Source of the DNA: an uncultured Gammaproteobacteria bacterium
GTDB lineage: Bacteria > Patescibacteriota > Microgenomatia > CAZETR01 > Amesbacteraceae
NCBI GenBank assembly: GCA_964543035.1
Contig: CAZIVL010000002.1
Coordinates: forward strand, 58,340-122,339
Direction of reading: 5' to 3'
DNA: 64,000 nucleotides
Below are positions 50,843 to 61,461 of this stretch, one piece after another (position 1 is the first letter of the stretch; every line of letters begins with the position of its first letter). Below the pieces are notes generated by a model. That model did no database searches. It saw only the letters and a program-made list of their open reading frames with translations, and was not told where the DNA came from. The position numbers were made by a program, and so were the translations under genes.

Positions 50843-51687
50843 AAAAATTGATGCTAGTACTGGTAATAGTAGTTGCTGTAGCGGGAGGAGCGGTATTTAC
50901 GCAGATAAAACCGACTGAACTGAAGCTAGGCATGCCGCCTGCGGTGGACATAGTCACTCCCACACCAGACGCGAGAGACCGGGAAACTGAAGACAAGCTT
51001 ACGAAACTGGTCGAGAATGCAGAAGGAACATATGGGGTGCATGTGCGAAGACAAAAATCTGGGCAAGAGTACGGGATAAATAGAGAAATGCAATTTGAGG
51101 CGGCTTCGATGTTTAAACTCGTACCACTGATTAATGCACTTCGAAAAGTAGAAGCAGGGGAATGGAAGCTGAATCAAAAGTTTGTAATCCTGGCGTCTGA
51201 CATTGCAACTGGATCTGGTCCACTCCAGTTTATGGACCCTGGGACTGAGGTAACTCTGGATAGGATGCTAACTGAACTGGGCGCAAAGTCTGACAATACT
51301 GCTTGGAGAATGCTGAATAGGCTAATTGGGATGGAGGAGATGCAAAAAACAATCGATGGTCTTAGTATGCGAGATAGTAACTATAAAGATCTGATGACTA
51401 CCCCGGTTGATATGGGACATCTGTGGACTTACATCTCAGTTGAGAAGATGGGCTGGAAATATCTGGTGGATAGTATCTATGAAGACAGGATCCCTCTGGG
51501 GTTACCTAAAGGAACTAATCTAATTCATAAAGTGGGAACCGATGTGGGGGTGTGGAGTGACTCGGGAGTGGTAGATAATAAATTTATCTTGGTCGTGATG
51601 ACAAAAGGTGCACCACGCAAGGAAGCTGAGAAGCTAGTGCCTGAGATTACAAAGCTTGTTTGGGATTTTGAAGTTTCGAGAAATTAA
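50839..51687 (+). CDS. class A beta-lactamase-like serine hydrolase
   Basis: Signal/TM N-terminus; AASMFK (SxxK), SDNTAW (SDN), KVGTD (KTG-like) in the right order and spacing. Confidence 0.6.
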   Translation: MKKLMLVLVIVVAVAGGAVFTQIKPTELKLGMPPAVDIVTPTPDARDRETEDKLTKLVENAEGTYGVHVRRQKSGQEYGINREMQFEAASMFKLVPLINALRKVEAGEWKLNQKFVILASDIATGSGPLQFMDPGTEVTLDRMLTELGAKSDNTAWRMLNRLIGMEEMQKTIDGLSMRDSNYKDLMTTPVDMGHLWTYISVEKMGWKYLVDSIYEDRIPLGLPKGTNLIHKVGTDVGVWSDSGVVDNKFILVVMTKGAPRKEAEKLVPEITKLVWDFEVSRN

Positions 51688-52396
51688 AGTTACTCCTAAC
51701 ATATTTTTTTATTTGTGAAAATCGTTTTGCTTGATCAAGCAGTCTAGATAAATTGTCATTTGATCTTCTTTGAACATTTAGTTTGAACGAAAAACCAAGT
51801 CCTCCAATTAATTGAAACTTTTCGGTTAAAAAATTATCATCGTATACATATTTGAGGTTTAAAACTTTTTCCATTTTTTCATAATCATCTAGTCCATTTA
51901 TGAGGTTATATGCTGATTTCAGAAAAATACCGTTGCACCCGTACAGGAAATGACATGATTTGAAAAAATCATTTAGTAAATAAATTACACGACTTTTATC
52001 AAGAAAATATGTAATATTTTTGTTTGTTGCCTGTAGAGGACCAGAAGCACACACATATTTTTTTGTAGACATAATTCTGATTGCATTTTCAATCCATTGA
52101 GGATTTAGAATTGTATCAGCATCAATAGTCGCAATTAGGTCGCAGGTTGCTTTTTTGAAACCTAATCTTCGCGTGGGTAACAATCCTTGTTGAGACTGTT
52201 GGGAGATAAGAAGGTCGCATTTTTTTTCTTTGAACTTTGAAATAAATGAAATTGCTATGTTTTGTGAATCGTCTGTCGAATTGTTGTCTACAAAGATAAT
52301 TTCATTTGGAGCTACGCTCTGATGCAGAAGACTGTCCAAGCAGATCGGTAAATACTTTTGATCGTTGAAACAAGGAATAACTACACTTACCTGCAT
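51647..52396 (-). CDS. family 2 glycosyltransferase
   Basis: VSVVIPCFNDQKYLPICLDSLLHQS and DADT/DxD region typical of GT2. Confidence 0.8.
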   Translation of the reverse strand: MQVSVVIPCFNDQKYLPICLDSLLHQSVAPNEIIFVDNNSTDDSQNIAISFISKFKEKKCDLLISQQSQQGLLPTRRLGFKKATCDLIATIDADTILNPQWIENAIRIMSTKKYVCASGPLQATNKNITYFLDKSRVIYLLNDFFKSCHFLYGCNGIFLKSAYNLINGLDDYEKMEKVLNLKYVYDDNFLTEKFQLIGGLGFSFKLNVQRRSNDNLSRLLDQAKRFSQIKKYVRSNFNFSKLQNPKQAL

Positions 52397-52559
52397 ACAA
52401 GATGACTATTGGGGGAGTAGATATTTGAAGTAGCGGAAGATGATGGCCACGGTTGCCAGAGCCGTGAGAAAAGAAATTAATAACATTGTATTTTTAAATT
52501 TGGACACCATATATTTGTATTCTACAGGACTGGATTCCCGGTCGTAGCCGGGAATGACG

Positions 52560-54812
52560 TTATCTGCGGCGGGGAGATGGTTTTTTGTTTGGAGTAGGAG
52601 TAGGTGCTTGGGGATTTTGGGTGGAGGCGCCAGTCAGAATCTGATCTTTGATCTTCTGGATGGTCTCGTCGGAACAAGTCTTCTCGGGCTCGGTGCCTGG
52701 TAAGAAGTACTCAAACTTGCCACCACAACTGTTGCAGGCTTTTTCGCCAGTAATAGGGCAGATGGCAACTCGGTTTAGTCCGGAAGGAGCTACAAAATCC
52801 TCAGATGGATACCGGGCAATGGCCTCTAACATGAGTTTTTTCCAGATGGGAGAGGCGCCAGTAACACCGGAGGCGACGTAGCTCATGGGAGTGTTGTCAT
52901 TGTTGCCCACCCAGACGAGGGTGACCAAATCGCTCGTGTAGCCGATGGTCCAATTGTCCCGCAGACTATTGGTAGTCCCTGTCTTGACTGCCACGCGGTG
53001 GGGAGCGAGATTGAGCTGAGAATTGGTGCCAAATGTGGGGGCGCGGGCGGCGTTGTCCGAAAGAATATCGGTGATCATGTAGGCAATGCCGGGACCTAGG
53101 ACCTCTTCTGATGGACAGGATGTGATCTCGGTGACGAGAGCCTCTGCGGCATTGGCCGCGGGGATGAATGGTGAGTAGTGAGTAGTGGGAGATTTTTTGT
53201 CACAGCGAAATTCTTCGAGTAATCTGCCGCGGGAGTCGCGAACGGAAAGAATGGATTGGGTAGGAACTCTTTGGCCCATGTTTGCAAATGTGCCATAAAC
53301 TTGGGCCATGTCCAGCATAGTGACTTCGCCACCACCCAATGTCAATGATAGTCCAAAACGGGAGGTATCGGTCCAAGTGGTAATGCCCATCTGGGTGCCA
53401 AGGGCAATCATGTTTTCAATACCATTTGCGGATAACAGCTTTACTGCCGGAATGTTGTACGAAGAAGCCAGAGCCGTCCTCAGAGATACTCGACCGTGGT
53501 AACGATTGTCATAATTTTGGGGAGAATAGTTTGGTTGACCTGGAGTCTTATAAGTAATAGGGGAATCTTCGATGATGGAAGAAGGGGTAAAGCCTTTTTG
53601 AAAAGCTAATGCATAGTTGACTGGCTTGATACTAGAGCCGGGCTGACGAATGGCTTTGGTGACATTTACCTGACCATCGGAGGCAATGTCAAAATAATTT
53701 TTTGACCCGACCATAGCTAAGATCTCACCCGTTTTGGGATTGGTCACCAGAGCCGCGCCATTGGTAATGTGCAAATAATTTACCTTGGCTACTTCGGTTG
53801 CGACGATCTCCTCGGCTTTTTTTTGCAGATCCAAGTCAAGCGAAGTGATGACATCGAGGCCGCCTTGTTCGACCAACTCGGGTCCATATTTTCGAGTCAG
53901 TATTTCTTTTATGTACATGACAAAGTGAGGAGCTGAGATGGTAGTGGCTGGGGGCTTGAAAGTCAGATCTAGACCGGAGGCTTCTTCGGCTTGTTCCCAG
54001 GTGATATATCCGTCTTCGACCATTCTTCGCAAAACTTCTTTTTGGCGAGATTTGGCTAGCTCTGGGTGAGAACCGTAGGGAGAGTACACGGTAGGTGAGG
54101 CGGGGAGACCGGCTAAAAGAGAAACTTGGGCCAGACTCAACTGAGCTGCGGGAATGCCAAAATATGTCTGAGCTGCTTCTTCGATGCCATAACTAGAACC
54201 CCCAAAACCTACGCGATTGAGATACATCTCCAAAATCTCGTCTTTTGTGTAGATGTATTCGACGGCAATTGATAAAGCCAGTTCACGAAGTTTTCTGATC
54301 AGTGTGCGCTCGGGGGAAAGAAGAGAAATCTTTACTAACTGTTGGGTAATGGTGGATCCACCCTGAAGAGTAGAATCTTTTTTTAGATTTGATACAAAAG
54401 CCCGAAATAACCCAGTGGGTGAGAAACCACGATGGTTGTAAAAATCTTTGTCTTCGATAGCAATCACTGCCTGTTTTACGTGGTCTGGAAGATCTGCCAG
54501 TTTGATGGGAGTGCGATTTTCTCCGGAATAAATCTTGTAAAGCTCAGTACCATTTCTGTCTCTGATATGAGTCGTCTGAGGAATCGGAGTGACTGATAGT
54601 GATTGGGGAGAAGGGAGACCCTTGAGTATAAAAAAATAAACACTAAATCCTAAAATACAAATAAAGAATAAGGGGATAAAATATAAAAATCTAACTCTGG
54701 GAAGTTTGATTAATTGAAGTACTGTGACGGCTGGATAAATGGATTTGAGAAAATTGTGAAGGGTCATATAAAGCGGATTATCTCTTTGGAATGCGATTTT
54801 CACAAGACGCAT
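52560..54812 (-). CDS. class A penicillin-binding protein (PBP1A family; glycosyltransferase + transpeptidase)
   Basis: GT51 motifs (AIEDKDFYNHRGF, GGSTITQQLVK), transpeptidase SxxK (GSSIKP), SxN and KTGT; ends with a C-terminal Cys-rich tail. Confidence 0.9.
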   Translation of the reverse strand: MRLVKIAFQRDNPLYMTLHNFLKSIYPAVTVLQLIKLPRVRFLYFIPLFFICILGFSVYFFILKGLPSPQSLSVTPIPQTTHIRDRNGTELYKIYSGENRTPIKLADLPDHVKQAVIAIEDKDFYNHRGFSPTGLFRAFVSNLKKDSTLQGGSTITQQLVKISLLSPERTLIRKLRELALSIAVEYIYTKDEILEMYLNRVGFGGSSYGIEEAAQTYFGIPAAQLSLAQVSLLAGLPASPTVYSPYGSHPELAKSRQKEVLRRMVEDGYITWEQAEEASGLDLTFKPPATTISAPHFVMYIKEILTRKYGPELVEQGGLDVITSLDLDLQKKAEEIVATEVAKVNYLHITNGAALVTNPKTGEILAMVGSKNYFDIASDGQVNVTKAIRQPGSSIKPVNYALAFQKGFTPSSIIEDSPITYKTPGQPNYSPQNYDNRYHGRVSLRTALASSYNIPAVKLLSANGIENMIALGTQMGITTWTDTSRFGLSLTLGGGEVTMLDMAQVYGTFANMGQRVPTQSILSVRDSRGRLLEEFRCDKKSPTTHYSPFIPAANAAEALVTEITSCPSEEVLGPGIAYMITDILSDNAARAPTFGTNSQLNLAPHRVAVKTGTTNSLRDNWTIGYTSDLVTLVWVGNNDNTPMSYVASGVTGASPIWKKLMLEAIARYPSEDFVAPSGLNRVAICPITGEKACNSCGGKFEYFLPGTEPEKTCSDETIQKIKDQILTGASTQNPQAPTPTPNKKPSPRRR

Positions 54813-55042
54813 TTGATATGCTAGAGAAGATGGCGGAGAAAGATCTAAGTGAGAGACAGAAAACTGTATTGGAAATAATTGTGAATCATACGAGTGGGGT
54901 GCCTACAAAAGATTTGTTGGAGACAGCCAGTAAAGACGGAGGAATGAGCGAAAGAGCTGCGAGGAGAATTGCTTGGCGGCTTGTGCGATTGGGTGAGGTA
55001 CGTTTTGAAAATGGAGTTTGGGAAGTTCAGAGCGAGGATTAG
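54791..55042 (+). CDS. small hypothetical protein (possible winged-helix)
   Basis: 83 aa; weak; lies between the two convergent/tandem PBP genes. Confidence 0.25.
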   Translation: MRFSQDAFDMLEKMAEKDLSERQKTVLEIIVNHTSGVPTKDLLETASKDGGMSERAARRIAWRLVRLGEVRFENGVWEVQSED

Positions 55043-57378
55043 AAATTTTGAGCTCGACCAGTCCGATCCAGAACAATAGTATTGGCATCGCCGTAACCTC
55101 CGGCACAATCGAGACACAGATCAATACCTAGGGGATCCGTGATGACCAAATGATCTTGGTATTCGATGTCTCCCGCAAAATCTGTCACTTGTCTGGGAGT
55201 GGCTGGTACATTGCGTGACTTGAGAATGGGAATGGATTTTCTGACCGACCCTTGGACTGCAGGAACTGTGCCAGCAAGAAAATATTCGTACCTGGGGGAG
55301 CAGGTAGCTGGATCTGCACCGTCTGGGGCCTTGTAACCTGAGAGGGAACAGACGAGAGTACCTACGACTTCGGCGGGCTGGGATGGCCAGTGCTGGGGCA
55401 TACCTGTGAGAGCTCTTCGCATCACTTTGTTCCAAATGGGGGAGGCGCCGGTGACACCGGAGGCCACATTTGACATGGGAGTGTTGTCATTATTTCCAAC
55501 CCAGACTGCAGTCAGGAGACTCGGGGTGTAGCCCACTGTCCAATTGTCTCTTTTGTTGTTTGTCGTCCCAGTCTTTACAGATACTTCTGGGTGGCCTGGG
55601 ATATTTAGAAATGAGGACACACCAAAAGTGGCGGCACGGGCGCCGGGATCGTAGAGAATGTGGGAAATAATGAAGGCCGTGCCGGGGGAGATGACACGAG
55701 TGTCGGAAACACCCTGTATAACGTATCTTGTATCTTGTATCTTGTATTCTGAATAAGGATTTGGCTGGTTGTCAGTATTTACTTCACGACTTTTTACTTG
55801 TTCGAGAATTTTTCCGTTGCGGTCCATGACGACTAAAATGGGATTGAGGTCTACTCTTTTGCCAGCGTTGGCCAGAACTCCATAGGCAGTTGAGAGATCG
55901 AGCATGGTGACCTCGCCCCCGCCCAAAGCAATACTAGGCCCATATTTGGTGGGATCGGTGTATGTCGAGAATCCGAAAGCTGAAGCCGAGGCCACAAAAT
56001 TGCCTAAGCCTTCCATGACGAGGGCTTTGACGGCTGGAATGTTGAAAGAATTGCCGAGAGCAAAACGAACTTGGGTGGGGCCGTGGAACTGGACATCGTA
56101 ATTTTGGGGACAATAAATCTCTTGACCTGCTTGAGCAAAACACGTAGCTTTGTCTGCAAGAAGGGTGCTGGCTGTAAATGTGCGATGCTCGATACCTAGA
56201 GCATAGGTAATGGGTTTGATACTGGAGCCTGGCTGACGCTTGGCCAAAGTTACATTTACATTGCCATCATCTTCAATATTGAAATAATCTTTGGATCCAA
56301 CCATAGCCAGAACTTCACCGGTTTTGGGATTGGTGACCAAGGCTGCACCGTTTCCGACTTTTTCGCGGGTGAGCTTGGCTACTTCGGAAGCGACAGTGTC
56401 TTGGGCAAAATTTTGGAGCTCAAGATCGAGGGTGGTGATGACGGTCAGACCATCTTGCTCGACTTTTTCGATGCCGTATTTTTCGATGAGCTTGTCTTTT
56501 ACCCAAAGAGAGAAATGAGGAGCTTTGAGAACTGGAGGGGATGAGAAGACTAATTCGGTGTTGATGGCTGAGTCATACTCTTCTTGAGAAATAAACTTGG
56601 CATCCAGCATCTGACTCAAAATATATTTTTGACGATCGAGACCCAGCTCGGGACGGGATCCAAAGGGAGAATAATACGAAGGGGCTTGGGGGAGGGCCGC
56701 CAGAAGAGCGGCTTCGGAGAGAGTAAGAGCTGTCGCTGGTTTGCCAAAATAAGCGTTGCTGGCTGCTTCCAATCCATATGCTGTGCCACCATATGGAATC
56801 TGGTTGAGATAGAGCTCCAGAATCTCATCTTTTTTGTAGAGGTTTTCGACAGCTAGACTCAAGACCAACTCACGAATCTTTCTTCTGATGGTTCTGTCAT
56901 CAACTAAGAGGGCTTTTTTTACTAACTGCTGAGTAATAGTGGAACCACCTTGGAGTTTTTGTCTAAAAAATGTACTAAAAAGGGCTCTACTTATGCCTTT
57001 TAAAGAGAAACCTGAGTGAGAATAAAAATCGCGATCTTCGGCGGCGAGGGTGGCTTGCCAGACGTACTTGGGGAGAGTGTCTAACTTGATGGGAGTCCTA
57101 CGACCTACGGAAAAAATCTCATAAATGATTTTGCCGTTTCTATCTAATAGTTTTGTGGAAGCGGGAGCGGGGTGGGTGGTGAGCTCGCGGGGATTTGGGA
57201 GATCCCAGAAGATATAGATGGACATAAGCACTAAAAAAATAAATCCTAAGGACCAAAAGAGGCGTTTTTTTCCTGACGGAAATTTCCACTTGGTCTGGAA
57301 GCGGGCGACTAGCTTGTCCTTATACTCCTTGGTTTTTGCTTGATCGTAGGTTCTTGCCTTTTTGGGCATATATTGCAA
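55039..57378 (-). CDS. class A penicillin-binding protein, second paralog
   Basis: AAEDRDFYSHSGF, GGSTITQQLVK, GSSIKP, KTGTTNN; same architecture as the 52560 gene. Confidence 0.9.
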   Translation of the reverse strand: MQYMPKKARTYDQAKTKEYKDKLVARFQTKWKFPSGKKRLFWSLGFIFLVLMSIYIFWDLPNPRELTTHPAPASTKLLDRNGKIIYEIFSVGRRTPIKLDTLPKYVWQATLAAEDRDFYSHSGFSLKGISRALFSTFFRQKLQGGSTITQQLVKKALLVDDRTIRRKIRELVLSLAVENLYKKDEILELYLNQIPYGGTAYGLEAASNAYFGKPATALTLSEAALLAALPQAPSYYSPFGSRPELGLDRQKYILSQMLDAKFISQEEYDSAINTELVFSSPPVLKAPHFSLWVKDKLIEKYGIEKVEQDGLTVITTLDLELQNFAQDTVASEVAKLTREKVGNGAALVTNPKTGEVLAMVGSKDYFNIEDDGNVNVTLAKRQPGSSIKPITYALGIEHRTFTASTLLADKATCFAQAGQEIYCPQNYDVQFHGPTQVRFALGNSFNIPAVKALVMEGLGNFVASASAFGFSTYTDPTKYGPSIALGGGEVTMLDLSTAYGVLANAGKRVDLNPILVVMDRNGKILEQVKSREVNTDNQPNPYSEYKIQDTRYVIQGVSDTRVISPGTAFIISHILYDPGARAATFGVSSFLNIPGHPEVSVKTGTTNNKRDNWTVGYTPSLLTAVWVGNNDNTPMSNVASGVTGASPIWNKVMRRALTGMPQHWPSQPAEVVGTLVCSLSGYKAPDGADPATCSPRYEYFLAGTVPAVQGSVRKSIPILKSRNVPATPRQVTDFAGDIEYQDHLVITDPLGIDLCLDCAGGYGDANTIVLDRTGRAQNF

Positions 57379-57606
57379 TTATACCGGTTCTTCTTATATG
57401 ATGTAGCTATGGCAGCCAAGAAGAAGGCTCAAGGTGGCAAAGAAGCAGAGGTGCAAAGTGAAGCTCTTGATGGCGAAGAGAAGCTAGATCCTCAAGAAGA
57501 AAAAGTATTGGACTGGATACTCAAAGGAATCGTGATATTTGTCCTGGCCTGGCTCGGACTATCGGTACTACTGGTCATCGGGGGACTATTTGGGGTGTGG
57601 AAGTAA
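57340..57606 (+). CDS. small protein with C-terminal TM helix
   Basis: 88 aa; acidic/lysine-rich N-part then IVIFVLAWLGLSVLLVIGGLFGV. Confidence 0.3.
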   Translation: MIVGSCLFGHILQLYRFFLYDVAMAAKKKAQGGKEAEVQSEALDGEEKLDPQEEKVLDWILKGIVIFVLAWLGLSVLLVIGGLFGVWK

Positions 57607-58284
57607 ATGGATGGAGAACCGCTGAGCGAGAGAATAGGAGAAGTAAAAGAAAGAGAGAGTAAAGAGGCCAGGAGACTGTATGTAGTGGTACATGCACAAA
57701 ATGTGGCGAGTGCAGATATCGCAAATGTAGATTTGGGACACAGGCTTGAAGAAAGGTTTCGAATGGATAAGGATGATGTGATGTGGTTTATGCCCATGAA
57801 TTTTGATAAGTCACTAAGCCAACAAAAAACTGAAGTGCGTAAGAACCTGTTTGCAAAAGCTGCAAATCCTAATGTTGGAGATTGGATAAGTTTATACAGA
57901 AGTTTTAAAGGAAAAAGTCCAGAACAGGTGATGCTGAGTCATGAGATGGTATTTAGCGAAACTATTCAATCTTCAGGGAAACAAAAGATTGATGATATGG
58001 TGGAAAGGACTGAACAGAAAGGATGGGAGATTACAAATAACACTGAGGTAATCGTAGGTGGAGAGATTACCGAGTGGTGTGTAAAAAATGCTGTATTGGC
58101 TATTTTTAAATCTCCTAAATTTAATAGGATATGGATTGATACTGCCGCGTCTAAACCTGAGAGAACTACTGACAGAGCGGTTGAAAGAATAGTGGGTGAA
58201 ATTGAATACACCGAAAGGTGGGGTCTTCATGCCAAATATAATCAGGAGAGAAAAATGGTGGAGGTTACTCGAAGAGTGAATTAG
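57607..58284 (+). CDS. hypothetical protein (weak isochorismatase/cysteine-hydrolase-like pattern)
   Basis: LYVVVHAQNV and EVIVGGEITEWCV resemble the two core strands of isochorismatase-family proteins, but the usual Asp is replaced; speculative. Confidence 0.3.
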   Translation: MDGEPLSERIGEVKERESKEARRLYVVVHAQNVASADIANVDLGHRLEERFRMDKDDVMWFMPMNFDKSLSQQKTEVRKNLFAKAANPNVGDWISLYRSFKGKSPEQVMLSHEMVFSETIQSSGKQKIDDMVERTEQKGWEITNNTEVIVGGEITEWCVKNAVLAIFKSPKFNRIWIDTAASKPERTTDRAVERIVGEIEYTERWGLHAKYNQERKMVEVTRRVN

Positions 58285-59507
58285 GATTGGGTGAGCCATT
58301 CTTGAGCGACGAGAGTTTGGAGAGCTGTTCTTTGGGGTGTGAAGACGTCAATTTGTTCGGGTTGGATGTCTAACTTTGGGAGAGTGGGTTGGACTTGGCC
58401 GGTTTGAATTACGGCATCGAGGTTGTCGGCAATCAACGCGTAGGTAATTGCCGTATGGCGCATATTGTTGCCCTCGATGTTTTTTAGAATAATTTCATTG
58501 ACGGCTTTGCCTAAATCTTGTGGATTGTAGCCTGCAATCCTGGCTTCAATAAGAGTTCTGCACATTCTGGAGACGTCTTTTCGTAAAGGATGATTGCGCC
58601 ACTCTCTGAAAACTTCGTCGTCGGATATTCCTCGGGCTCTGAGATCGCCTACCAAATTTCCAATTTTGTGAGCAATAAACAAATCGTCAGGGAGAGTTTT
58701 TATATCAGTGCCTAGTATCTCTGAAGCTGCCAATTCTACTACTGCCTCTTGCCAGGTAGATATGGCAGAGTGATCTCCTGCTTGATCGCCAACTGTTAAA
58801 TGATCTGCAGGCCGGGCTTGTTTTTCTCTTCTGTCTGCAGCATCCACTATCTGACTGTAGTCAGGGTTCAGATAGGTATGACCAGTCTCGTGTGTACCTA
58901 CTCGATATGCTAAATCGGCGTTTTTCCCCTGGCAAGATTCGGGATATAAACTGGAATAATCGTCGGTAAGAAGCTGGGTGGTGGTAATCAAACTGAGCTC
59001 TCCTGCTGAAATACTTGTGGTGAGGGTTCGATTGTCTAGCGAGACTGCAGCAACTGCTTTTTGGGTGGGATCTATGTTTACGGAAACAGTGGGAGGTCGG
59101 TCAAGAAGGGGATTGTAACCACCATACTTTAGATGGTCGGTGTATTGGCGAAGGTGGGGATAGGCTTCTAAATATTTGTTCCAGGCGGAGTGGGCGACCG
59201 CAGCAAATGTAGCTTCGTCTAGACCTGCAAGTTCGTGGGCAAGGCGATTTAGATCCTCGGTTGTAAGAGGTGAGTGGTCTCCTACTTTTGTGCGCAACTC
59301 TTCTACTGGTGATTTTGGGGTTTCTAGACTTTGGATATTTGTGGCTAGTAGTTTTCTGTTGTCAGGTTGGTTTTTGATTTCAGTTTTACTATTTTTTTTG
59401 GGTAGATCGGTAGGCTCGATTGAATCTGGAATGGGATTCATGGGATGATTGTAGCACCAGAGTATTGAGTCCTTGATTTGATAAAATTGACCTATGGGGA
59501 TGTACAA
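58281..59507 (-). CDS. hypothetical protein with HExxH zincin-like motif
   Basis: 408 aa; VGTHETGHTYLNPDYSQIVDAADRRE contains HETGH plus a downstream Glu; no signal peptide obvious. Confidence 0.35.
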   Translation of the reverse strand: MYIPIGQFYQIKDSILWCYNHPMNPIPDSIEPTDLPKKNSKTEIKNQPDNRKLLATNIQSLETPKSPVEELRTKVGDHSPLTTEDLNRLAHELAGLDEATFAAVAHSAWNKYLEAYPHLRQYTDHLKYGGYNPLLDRPPTVSVNIDPTQKAVAAVSLDNRTLTTSISAGELSLITTTQLLTDDYSSLYPESCQGKNADLAYRVGTHETGHTYLNPDYSQIVDAADRREKQARPADHLTVGDQAGDHSAISTWQEAVVELAASEILGTDIKTLPDDLFIAHKIGNLVGDLRARGISDDEVFREWRNHPLRKDVSRMCRTLIEARIAGYNPQDLGKAVNEIILKNIEGNNMRHTAITYALIADNLDAVIQTGQVQPTLPKLDIQPEQIDVFTPQRTALQTLVAQEWLTQS

Positions 59508-59715
59508 CGTGATATTGACTGATAAACCATGCTCTGTGTGTGGGGCTAAAGTTCAGTGGCAGACAAAAGATCTTGTGATTGATGATATCTACCCTGTTGC
59601 AAATTATTGTGACAGCTTTCAGTTGAATGAAAGGATGGATGCTGAAATTTATACAACTTGCGATAAATGTGGGACATCCTTGGAACTGAAAATTGTAAAG
59701 GGGAAGATAGTGTAG
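59494..59715 (+). CDS. small zinc-ribbon protein
   Basis: 73 aa; CSVCGAK ... CDKCGTS, two CxxC pairs about 45 aa apart. Confidence 0.4.
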   Translation: MGMYNVILTDKPCSVCGAKVQWQTKDLVIDDIYPVANYCDSFQLNERMDAEIYTTCDKCGTSLELKIVKGKIV

Positions 59716-59718
59716 AAT

Positions 59719-60228
59719 TTGGTGATGGAAAATTATCAGAGCTCTAATTGGTGGAACTACATGGATGACACGATGAGGGATCTGGCGACACAATCGCACA
59801 CGCTTTTGGAAACATTTAAGGACGATGGAAAGTCTGGACATCATGACTACTCATTTGTCGTGTTTCCGATGTCCAAAGCCTATGAGGGTTTCCTCAAAAA
59901 GCTATTTTTGGATATGGGGCTGATTGGAATGGCGCAGTACAAAGGGGAGCACTTAAGAATCGGAAAAATACTCAATCCAAACCTACCAAGAAGATATAGA
60001 TCGGGTTGGGTGTTTGAAAAACTATCTGCTGCTTGTGGCGGAGAAGACCTACCGCTGACTCTGTGGGAAACATGGAAGAGAGCCCGAAACCGAGTATTTC
60101 ATTTTTTTCCGGATCACGCTGAATTTCTCACCTATGAAGAAGCGAAAAACCTAATAAATAAAATAATGGAAGCTATGGATAAAGCCTTGGCTGGATGTGA
60201 AGTGAAGAGTATGCCCAACGCTGTATAA
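59719..60228 (+). CDS. hypothetical protein with HEPN-like R-x4-H motif
   Basis: 169 aa; ARNRVFHF (R-N-x-x-x-H) near the C-terminal third in a predicted helical protein; 3 nt downstream of the zinc-ribbon ORF. Confidence 0.3.
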   Translation: MVMENYQSSNWWNYMDDTMRDLATQSHTLLETFKDDGKSGHHDYSFVVFPMSKAYEGFLKKLFLDMGLIGMAQYKGEHLRIGKILNPNLPRRYRSGWVFEKLSAACGGEDLPLTLWETWKRARNRVFHFFPDHAEFLTYEEAKNLINKIMEAMDKALAGCEVKSMPNAV

Positions 60229-60303
60229 TTTGCAAGCAAATTTGGTTGTGCATATATCCAACTTCGTTGTATGTTGTTGGCTATAGTTGAGACCCTTGAC
60301 TGA

Positions 60304-60945
60304 TTGTGGCATACTGATTGGTGCCCTATGGGAGAGAAGTCAGAAATGATTCGGACTTGGGGGAGCCTGAGAGCTGCTGCTTTTGGTAGTGTAGCTGCTG
60401 TGTTTTTGGGAAGCTTGGTACTTTTGGTCTCGCTACTGGCAATATCGCCTTCGGTTGTGTCTCCGCATGAAGTCACGGCCCTAATCGGGGAAGTGCCCAA
60501 GGTCGAATACTACTTGCCATATCCGGGAATACTGCCAGACAGTCCGCTGTATAAGATCAAAGCGGCTCGGGATAAAGTATCGCTACTTGTGACTCTAAAC
60601 CCAGAAAAGAAGGCTGAGAAAGAACTGTTTTTGGCTGACAAAAGAATAAACGCAGCTCTGGCTCTTTATGATGGCGGAAAAGTAGATCTGGCAATATCGG
60701 TGGCTACTAAAGCTGAGAAATATCTGGCTTCGTCTGTAAAGGGGGCAGTGAAACTGGCGTCTGAAGGAAAAGATGTCAAATCTCTTTTGAACCGATTGTC
60801 TCTTGCTACTATGAAGCATGTGGAACTGCTGAACTCTTTTAAGACAAAATCGAACGGAACGCAGGGAGTAGTGTTGGAAACAGTTATGGTAGAGGTGGAT
60901 GCCCTACATGATCTGGTGGATCAAGCCTTGGTGGAGAGTGAGTGA
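60304..60945 (+). CDS. DUF5667-like secreted/anchored protein
   Basis: N-terminal TM; YYLPYPGILPDSPLYKIK motif as recalled for DUF5667; helical remainder. Confidence 0.4.
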   Translation: MWHTDWCPMGEKSEMIRTWGSLRAAAFGSVAAVFLGSLVLLVSLLAISPSVVSPHEVTALIGEVPKVEYYLPYPGILPDSPLYKIKAARDKVSLLVTLNPEKKAEKELFLADKRINAALALYDGGKVDLAISVATKAEKYLASSVKGAVKLASEGKDVKSLLNRLSLATMKHVELLNSFKTKSNGTQGVVLETVMVEVDALHDLVDQALVESE

Positions 60946-60960
60946 TCTGATTAGATATAG

Positions 60961-61013
60961 TTGACATTGGTTATCTAGTGTTTTAGTCTAGTGTTCGTCA
61001 CTAAATGTAGTAT
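60961..61013 (+). promoter_or_regulatory. putative nrdR promoter (TTGACA-N17-TAGTCT) and NrdR-box-like imperfect palindrome
   Basis: TTGACA 60961-60966; TAGTCT 60984-60989; CACTAAATGTAGTA at 60999-61012 approximates the ACTA-N4-TAGT core of NrdR boxes and overlaps the nrdR ATG. Confidence 0.3.
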
Positions 61014-61461
61014 GCGTTGCCCTTTTTGTGCGGTCCTTGACACATCAGTATTGGAGTCCAGGGTGGCCGAAGACGGTCAATCTTTGCGACGCAGAAGAGA
61101 GTGCCAAAAATGTGAGAAAAGGTTTACTACTTTTGAAAGAGTAGAAGGACCCACAATTTTTGTCATCAAGCGTGACGGAGGTCGAGAACCATTTGACCGG
61201 GAAAAGATCATCCGGGGGGTGAGTCGGTCATTTGATAAAAGACCAGTGTCCATTGATCTGATACATCATCTGGCTGATGAAGTAGAAAGAGAAGTGAGAC
61301 GCAAAGAAGTCTCTGAGATATCTTCTAAGGCTATTGGCCGGATGGTACTTAAGAGACTCAAAAATATAGACAAGGTGGCCTGGGTGAGGTTCGCCAGCGT
61401 GTATCTGGAGCTGACAGACTTGACCGCTTTCGAAAGACTCATTGAAAAGATAACTAGTTAA
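61012..61461 (+). CDS. nrdR: transcriptional repressor NrdR
   Basis: MRCPFC...ECQKCEKRFTTFE zinc ribbon followed by an ATP-cone; start chosen at the conserved MRCPFC. Confidence 0.9.
   Translation: MRCPFCAVLDTSVLESRVAEDGQSLRRRRECQKCEKRFTTFERVEGPTIFVIKRDGGREPFDREKIIRGVSRSFDKRPVSIDLIHHLADEVEREVRRKEVSEISSKAIGRMVLKRLKNIDKVAWVRFASVYLELTDLTAFERLIEKITS

Follow-up and report, generated by a model that had tools for sequence, protein, structure and literature searches.

A standalone HEPN protein of the RnlA/LsoA type at a conserved Microgenomates locus, with a strain-specific insert beside it

To our knowledge, HEPN domains of the RnlA/LsoA class (RNase LS) are known only from multi-domain anti-phage toxins that come with an antitoxin. 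Here we analyze a gene for a small standalone protein of this class, found in a 64,000-nucleotide stretch of contig CAZIVL010000002.1 (hereafter the window, whose coordinates are used throughout) from an uncultured bacterium that GTDB places in the Microgenomatia. All characterized HEPN proteins of the RnlA/LsoA type are toxins that a partner restrains (PMC3710099, PMC8266594). In RnlA, the residues R255, E258, R318 and H323 are each needed for RNase activity and toxicity, and activity requires the canonical HEPN dimer that brings the R-x4-H motifs together (PMC8266594). A sequence-only reading of the window had suggested that a 73-aa zinc-ribbon protein (as antitoxin) and the HEPN protein (as toxin) could make up a module of the type II toxin-antitoxin or abortive-infection kind, and that a HExxH protein encoded on the opposite strand could be an associated effector or immunity peptidase. 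Our analysis leads elsewhere. We consider it probable that the region is a composite, consisting of a conserved Microgenomates core locus and a 2.1-kb strain-specific insert, and that the HEPN gene encodes a lineage-specific RNase without a partner, whose role we infer.

The open reading frames (ORFs) and motifs of the sequence-only reading are all in place between the PBP1A genes and nrdR (Table 1), and its HEPN assignment, made from the R-x4-6-H signature of a 169-aa ORF, is borne out by the Pfam profiles of the family, by a profile match to LsoA and by the conserved active site. The gene most likely starts at the ATG at 59725, because the conserved N-terminal NWWxY begins there, giving a protein of 167 aa, from which we number residues; the zinc-ribbon gene upstream does adjoin it, and the gap after its stop codon is therefore 9 nt, not the 3 nt first given. 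The AlphaFold2 (AF2) model (pLDDT 90.1) is an all-α, four-helix up-down bundle, as in the HEPN superfamily, and the motif R121-N-R-V-F-H126 has a polar residue after the arginine. Scored alone against Pfam, the window protein stays below threshold for both HEPN_RnaseLS (PF18869; E = 1.6e-4, 22.5 bits, gathering score 29) and RnlA-toxin_DBD (PF19034; E = 6.5e-3, 17.3 bits, cut-off 27). At the level of the family (E ≤ 0.01), PF18869 is found in 72 of 73 aligned members and PF19034 in 67 of 73, with a best value of 3e-7. When the family profile was compared with the PDB, the sole match was LsoA (5hy3; E = 0.008, residues 22-155). The LsoA alignment places RnlA R255, E258, R318 and H323 at K51, E54, R121 and H126 of the window protein. 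These four residues, as well as N122, are invariant in the 73-sequence alignment, and all 200 family members examined have the motifs K-x2-E and R-x4-H. The catalytic tetrad of RnlA/LsoA is thus present, with a conservative R-to-K change at its first position, and from these residues we predict that the protein probably retains catalysis. The results support the assignment of the ORF product to the HEPN fold and to the RnlA/LsoA type. UniRef labels one family member 'Bacterial toxin RNase RnlA/LsoA DBD domain-containing protein', so the domain assignment itself is not new; full-text literature searches on DUF5667 and on HEPN with the Candidate Phyla Radiation (CPR) gave no paper on this HEPN family.

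The resemblance to RnlA/LsoA of Escherichia coli (PDB 5hy3, 7aex, 6y2r) covers the HEPN domain and its active site, but it does not extend to the rest of the system. The window protein, at ∼165 aa, lacks the two N-terminal TBP-like domains (NTD, NRD) of RnlA/LsoA, has K in place of R255, and falls below the Pfam gathering score. Its family is equally minimal: among 697 homologues detected, the 120 listed are all 141-194 aa long and consist of the HEPN domain alone, with no N-terminal TBP-like or RNase H-like domain. No gene for an RnlB/LsoB-type antitoxin was found adjoining the window gene. Moreover, while RnlA/LsoA systems are patchy and borne on plasmids or islands, the window gene is chromosomal, syntenic and class-wide in Microgenomates. 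The HepT/MntA system (HEPN/MNT, type VII toxin-antitoxin) is a different sequence family; the window has no adjacent MNT nucleotidyltransferase, and its HEPN protein gives no match to PF01934. A genuine HepT (PF01934, E = 4e-28)/MntA pair does occur as a separate module in one Collierbacteria locus (L064, 6501-7356), directly downstream of the HEPN gene and convergent to it, where it takes the position of DUF5667. What is novel here is a minimal HEPN of the RNase LS type, partnerless and class-wide; the remainder of the cluster is made up of orphan genes that occupy a variable slot.

The genomic context of the HEPN gene was compared across a scan of GTDB species genomes, in which at least 550 genomes encode a HEPN relative; locus counts refer to the best 80, and the loci of five distinct homologues were additionally fetched by gene look-up. 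Among the 80 listed loci, every record with a usable taxon name belongs to Patescibacteria, mainly Microgenomates (Amesbacteria, Woesebacteria, Gottesmanbacteria, Collierbacteria and others). Gene look-ups and scan show the same conserved order: PBP1A(-), PBP1A(-), HEPN(+), DUF5667(+), NrdR(+) and ribonucleotide reductase, the last seen after NrdR in L001, L003 and L005. In the window's clade, a small membrane protein, TM88, sits between PBP1A(-) and the HEPN gene. Of 69 GTDB loci, 63 have a divergent PBP1A gene ≤3 kb upstream of HEPN; a same-strand DUF5667 gene is found ≤3 kb downstream in 65 of 74 loci, and NrdR ≤4.5 kb downstream in 50 of 67. The identity of HEPN proteins to that of the window co-varies with the identity of their neighbors (Spearman rho 0.37-0.46, p<0.002), and the mean HEPN identity of 47% falls between those of DUF5667 (40%) and PBP1A (54%). 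No family members were found in IMG/VR viral contigs, and the family has no PADLOC match. Rather than a mobile module, the HEPN gene is a core gene that is inherited vertically and keeps its synteny.

Two further observations concern this locus in other genomes. In Woesebacteria (L028, 6492-7133; L029, 6585-7241; L046, 6495-7133; and others), a gene for a ∼215-aa Rce1-like/CPBP intramembrane protease (PF02517, E ∼3e-14), absent from the window's clade, stands between the HEPN and DUF5667 genes. Many third-party annotation (TPA) records of metagenome-assembled genomes titled 'uncultured Gammaproteobacteria', and one titled 'Alphaproteobacteria', hold the Microgenomates-type PBP1A/HEPN/DUF5667/NrdR locus (L013, L019, L021, L022, L025 and others); their titles look taxonomically mislabeled.

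How might such a protein act in the cell? By analogy with RnlA, the 167-aa protein would form a canonical HEPN homodimer, and the dimer would juxtapose the two R-x4-H motifs (R121...H126) with K51 and E54, producing a metal-independent endoribonuclease site. Comparison of the loci and of the active sites suggests that it is most likely a lineage-specific RNase without a partner antitoxin, which may serve the cell in RNA processing, turnover or stress response and would not be an addictive toxin. We favor a cellular RNase because the gene is vertically inherited, occupies a single syntenic locus, shows an ordinary rate of evolution and lacks a conserved partner in the cytosol: TM88, DUF5667 and the CPBP protein of Woesebacteria are all membrane proteins. 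An addictive toxin is disfavored because the family is restricted to one class yet widespread in it, and was found neither in PADLOC nor in viral contigs. In its full form the proposal is tentative: that Microgenomates have a class-wide, vertically inherited, antitoxin-less RnlA-type HEPN endoribonuclease, perhaps recruited out of a toxin lineage to serve the cell (in the processing of rRNA, tRNA or mRNA, or in RNA decay linked to envelope stress) and kept beside the envelope genes for PBP1A and DUF5667, with a recombination hot spot adjoining it. If the proposal is true, a minimal partnerless HEPN of the RnlA/LsoA type, at one locus in hundreds of CPR species with genomes of ∼1 Mb, would show how a toxin fold has been recruited to serve the cell, and it would be a candidate for an RNase specific to this lineage, in organisms with a poorly understood RNA metabolism.

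Several points weigh against this interpretation. That the HEPN protein acts as an RNase is a prediction from sequence analogy; the window protein by itself is under the Pfam gathering threshold; and a lysine stands at the position equivalent to RnlA R255, a residue that in RnlA mainly affects substrate binding. An unlinked, membrane-bound or RNA antitoxin could exist. Two Gottesmanbacteria loci (L053 and L078) are without PBP1A and DUF5667 neighbors, and since the loci inspected are the best 80 of at least 550, more distant members may have other contexts. Synteny within one class can persist without functional meaning, so the neighbors say little about the role of the gene. As for the insert, its three genes may have arrived separately and may function separately.

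The most serious competitor to a cellular RNase is a toxin that was fixed in the ancestor of Microgenomates, a domesticated toxin-antitoxin or abortive-infection-like protein that would be held by DUF5667, CPBP, TM88 or an unlinked factor and freed on envelope or phage stress. It would fit the partner-restrained toxicity of all characterized relatives (PMC3710099, PMC8266594), the DUF5667 gene that so regularly follows, the CPBP gene that in Woesebacteria comes between the two, and the accumulation of toxin-antitoxin modules at the neighboring site (see below). However, DUF5667, CPBP and TM88 belong to the membrane or lie outside the cytoplasm, and are therefore unlikely to inhibit a cytosolic RNase directly. 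None of the possible partners is universal, TM88 being specific to one clade and CPBP to Woesebacteria, and three loci (L053, L078 and L080) lack both PBP1A and DUF5667; the HEPN family, in addition, evolves at a housekeeping-like rate. We therefore regard a fixed toxin as unlikely. A non-catalytic role, as an RNA- or nucleotide-binding regulator of envelope or nrd genes, akin to MtlR or to the substrate-binding domains of nucleotidyltransferases, fares worse. Non-catalytic HEPN domains typically lose the R-x4-6-H motif, whereas this family keeps R, N and H as well as K and E in every one of the 200 members, matching the residues needed in RnlA; full conservation of the active site makes this role very unlikely.

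Returning to the favored reading of a core gene beside an insert, we are left with a question: how does a zinc-ribbon gene come to lie 9 nt from the HEPN gene? The answer lies in the comparison of related loci. Among the loci compared, the genes for the 225-aa, 386-aa and zinc-ribbon proteins appear only in the window's own contigs (L009 and L010), and they occur in 0 of the 80 GTDB loci. In the closest relative, whose HEPN protein is 97% identical (L008), the HEPN gene has directly upstream of it a PIN-domain gene (PF01850) and, ahead of that, a 68-aa ORF, which we read together as a VapBC pair; its DNA is similar to the window from 59707 on, at the end of the zinc-ribbon gene. In another, with ∼80% DNA identity in the flanks (L007), TM88 and the HEPN gene are only ∼30-60 bp apart. 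Across Amesbacteria-like relatives, the TM88-to-HEPN gap ranges from 3 to 4997 bp, and its content differs by genome. VapBC cassettes (ribbon-helix-helix plus PIN) fill this slot directly upstream of HEPN in L003, L008, L012, L014, L016 and L025; the window has none, and three orphan genes fill the slot instead. We conclude that the TM88-HEPN slot is a variable hot spot in which toxin-antitoxin modules and orphan genes gather, with TM88 as its left border in the window, and that the zinc ribbon probably adjoins the HEPN gene by an accident of insertion, as part of the composite reading given at the outset. Tight adjacency and a HEPN motif alone thus do not indicate a toxin-antitoxin pair.

The variable slot, which corresponds to 57606/59725 in the window, was seen in L003, L005, L012, L014-L016, L024-L026 and L066, and its fillings include VapBC pairs, an ATPase (AAA_14/DUF4143) and proteins without Pfam matches, 165-600 aa in length. 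It may be used as a marker for orphan and toxin-antitoxin cargo in Amesbacteria-like genomes. We also considered whether the zinc-ribbon 3′ end (...KIV*) is a remnant of a displaced vapC 3′ end (...RIV*); the two agree over too short a stretch for a verdict.

Could the three insert genes form a new mobile cassette in their own right, independent of the HEPN gene, such as a protease-based defense or counter-defense unit? They make up one compact, fully coding block, in which the 225-aa gene begins directly at the TM88 stop and overlaps the 386-aa gene at the stops of both, while 52 nt separate the 386-aa gene from the divergent zinc-ribbon gene; the site is elsewhere a hot spot with toxin-antitoxin modules, and the HExxH motif is invariant in the 386-aa family. 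Against this, the relatives of the HExxH protein (L091, L092 and L094) and of the zinc ribbon (L093) never co-occur with each other or with a homologue of the 225-aa protein. The insert has no integrase or tRNA hallmark, its flanks contain no significant repeats (only chance-level 12-14-mers), no viral or phage relatives were found, and PADLOC gave no match. Such a cassette is highly improbable. Least credible of all is the toxin-antitoxin or abortive-infection module of the sequence-only reading, for although the two genes are co-oriented and 3-9 nt apart, the HEPN protein has an intact RNase LS-type active site and small zinc-ribbon antitoxins exist in other systems, the zinc ribbon is missing upstream of HEPN in all 80 listed GTDB loci and the five gene-look-up loci, including that of the 97%-identical homologue, its only homologue found adjoins a glyceraldehyde-3-phosphate dehydrogenase (GAPDH) gene, neither a zinc ribbon nor a HEPN gene neighbors the HExxH relatives and PADLOC finds nothing, so that we reject the pair because homologues are never linked, which the sequence-only reading had itself named as grounds for giving it up, and with it the new defense module as originally framed.

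The proteins of the insert are orphans to different degrees. Scans of the region's six proteins with PADLOC, NCBIfam and PHROGs gave nothing significant, in line with the earlier statement that no named system could be recognized; with respect to the known anti-phage defense systems in PADLOC-DB v2, the 225-aa protein has a marginal AbiEi match (E = 0.0012, 17 bits), and the other five have none. The 225-aa protein matches itself alone among 5.8 billion clustered proteins and has no significant match in Pfam, NCBIfam or PHROGs. Its earlier description as cysteine-hydrolase-like finds no backing, with no isochorismatase/cysteine-hydrolase match at E ≤ 1 in Pfam or NCBIfam and no homologue. An α/β-hydrolase fold was also considered, from a weak PDB match to the lipase-related 10xn_A (E = 6.7e-4), in which the nucleophilic serine is unaligned; we make no functional assignment.

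The 408-aa ORF of the HExxH gene opens at an upstream TTG, while homologues and public gene calls use the ATG at 59441, which is the most likely start and gives 386 aa. A word-indexed homologue search with this protein returned itself alone; exhaustive HMMER searches of 1.84 billion representatives found four distant relatives (37-44% identity). In the resulting family of five, the HExxH residues (H184, E185 and H188) and the downstream E232 and E241 are invariant. HExxH lies inside a long helix (177-209), and both glutamates are on the next helix, a layout like that of gluzincin/zincin metallopeptidases (HExxH...E). Sequence searches matched no peptidase family and no recognizable fold, a single-sequence PDB search gave only noise, and tblastn against phage records and a scan of viral contigs found nothing. 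It is possible, to judge from these residues, that the 386-aa protein is a zincin-like hydrolase. Its relatives in L091, L092 and L094 occur in unrelated contexts, as far as their short contigs extend.

For the 73-aa zinc ribbon, a single homologue was found (L093, 862-1107; 81 aa), with 56% identity over 72 aa, in which both CxxC pairs and the MGMYN start are kept. The homologue lies between an unrelated 245-aa gene and the GAPDH gene (VAINGFGRIGR...), with no HEPN gene, indicating that the zinc-ribbon protein moves between contexts independently. It is a real gene, and it is not the partner of HEPN.

Table 1. Features of the HEPN locus in the window (corrected starts are the most likely ones).
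Feature	Coordinates	Strand	Basis
PBP1A paralogue, second copy	52560-54812	-	ORF
PBP1A-type bifunctional penicillin-binding protein, left anchor of the locus	55039-57378	-	ORF; Pfam Transgly and Transpeptidase on homologous genes of relatives
TM88, small protein with C-terminal membrane anchor, 65 aa from ATG	57409-57606	+	Homologues, hydrophobic segment
2.1-kb strain-specific insert, three genes, fully coding	57607-59715		Locus comparison
225-aa soluble ORFan	57607-58284	+	ORF, homologue search
386-aa soluble all-α HExxH protein	58281-59441	-	ORF (408 aa to 59507), start corrected
73-aa four-cysteine zinc ribbon (C13/C16, C56/C59), CSVC...CDKC	59494-59715	+	ORF, weak Pfam zinc-ribbon matches
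167-aa standalone RnlA/LsoA-type (RNase LS) HEPN protein, RNRVFH	59725-60228	+	ORF (169 aa from 59719), start corrected
DUF5667 protein, 213 aa, N-terminal membrane anchor	60304-60945	+	Pfam DUF5667
NrdR repressor (zinc ribbon and ATP-cone), right anchor of the locus	61012-61461 (60991-61461 as ORF)	+	Pfam

The remaining genes of the core locus are well defined (Table 1). The 88-aa ORF at 57340 most likely starts at the ATG at 57409, giving the 65-aa TM88, which the sequence-only reading had passed over and whose residues 32-65 are hydrophobic; it was detected by tblastn in ∼20 loci, is conserved within the Amesbacteria-like clade, and its homologues in L001, L003, L005 and L007 terminate in ...GVWK. 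The DUF5667 protein, described before as exported and, rightly, as DUF5667-like, matches PF18915 (E = 1.8e-12, 47.9 bits, cut-off 27), and the hydrophobic segment of its N-terminal anchor comprises residues 21-55. NrdR is identified by Zn_ribbon_NrdR (E = 4e-19) and ATP-cone (E = 7e-22).

An Rfam scan of 54.5-62.5 kb gave no match, and scans of the region for promoter and terminator consensus sequences stayed at background level. Between the two PBP1A paralogues, but on the opposite strand, is an 83-aa ORF (54791-55042, +) that public records of the contig call as a gene; it has only weak winged-helix-like matches (LexA_DNA_bind, E = 0.07), and the relative L007 has just ∼130 bp in its place. 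Base composition shows two features on a larger scale. A stretch at ∼51000-52500 is low in GC (0.35-0.39, compared with ∼0.45 around it), and the GC skew of the + strand is positive across the entire window (1-64000; +0.14 to +0.38 per 4-kb window), even over the minus-strand PBP1A genes, indicating a strong asymmetry that is independent of gene orientation.

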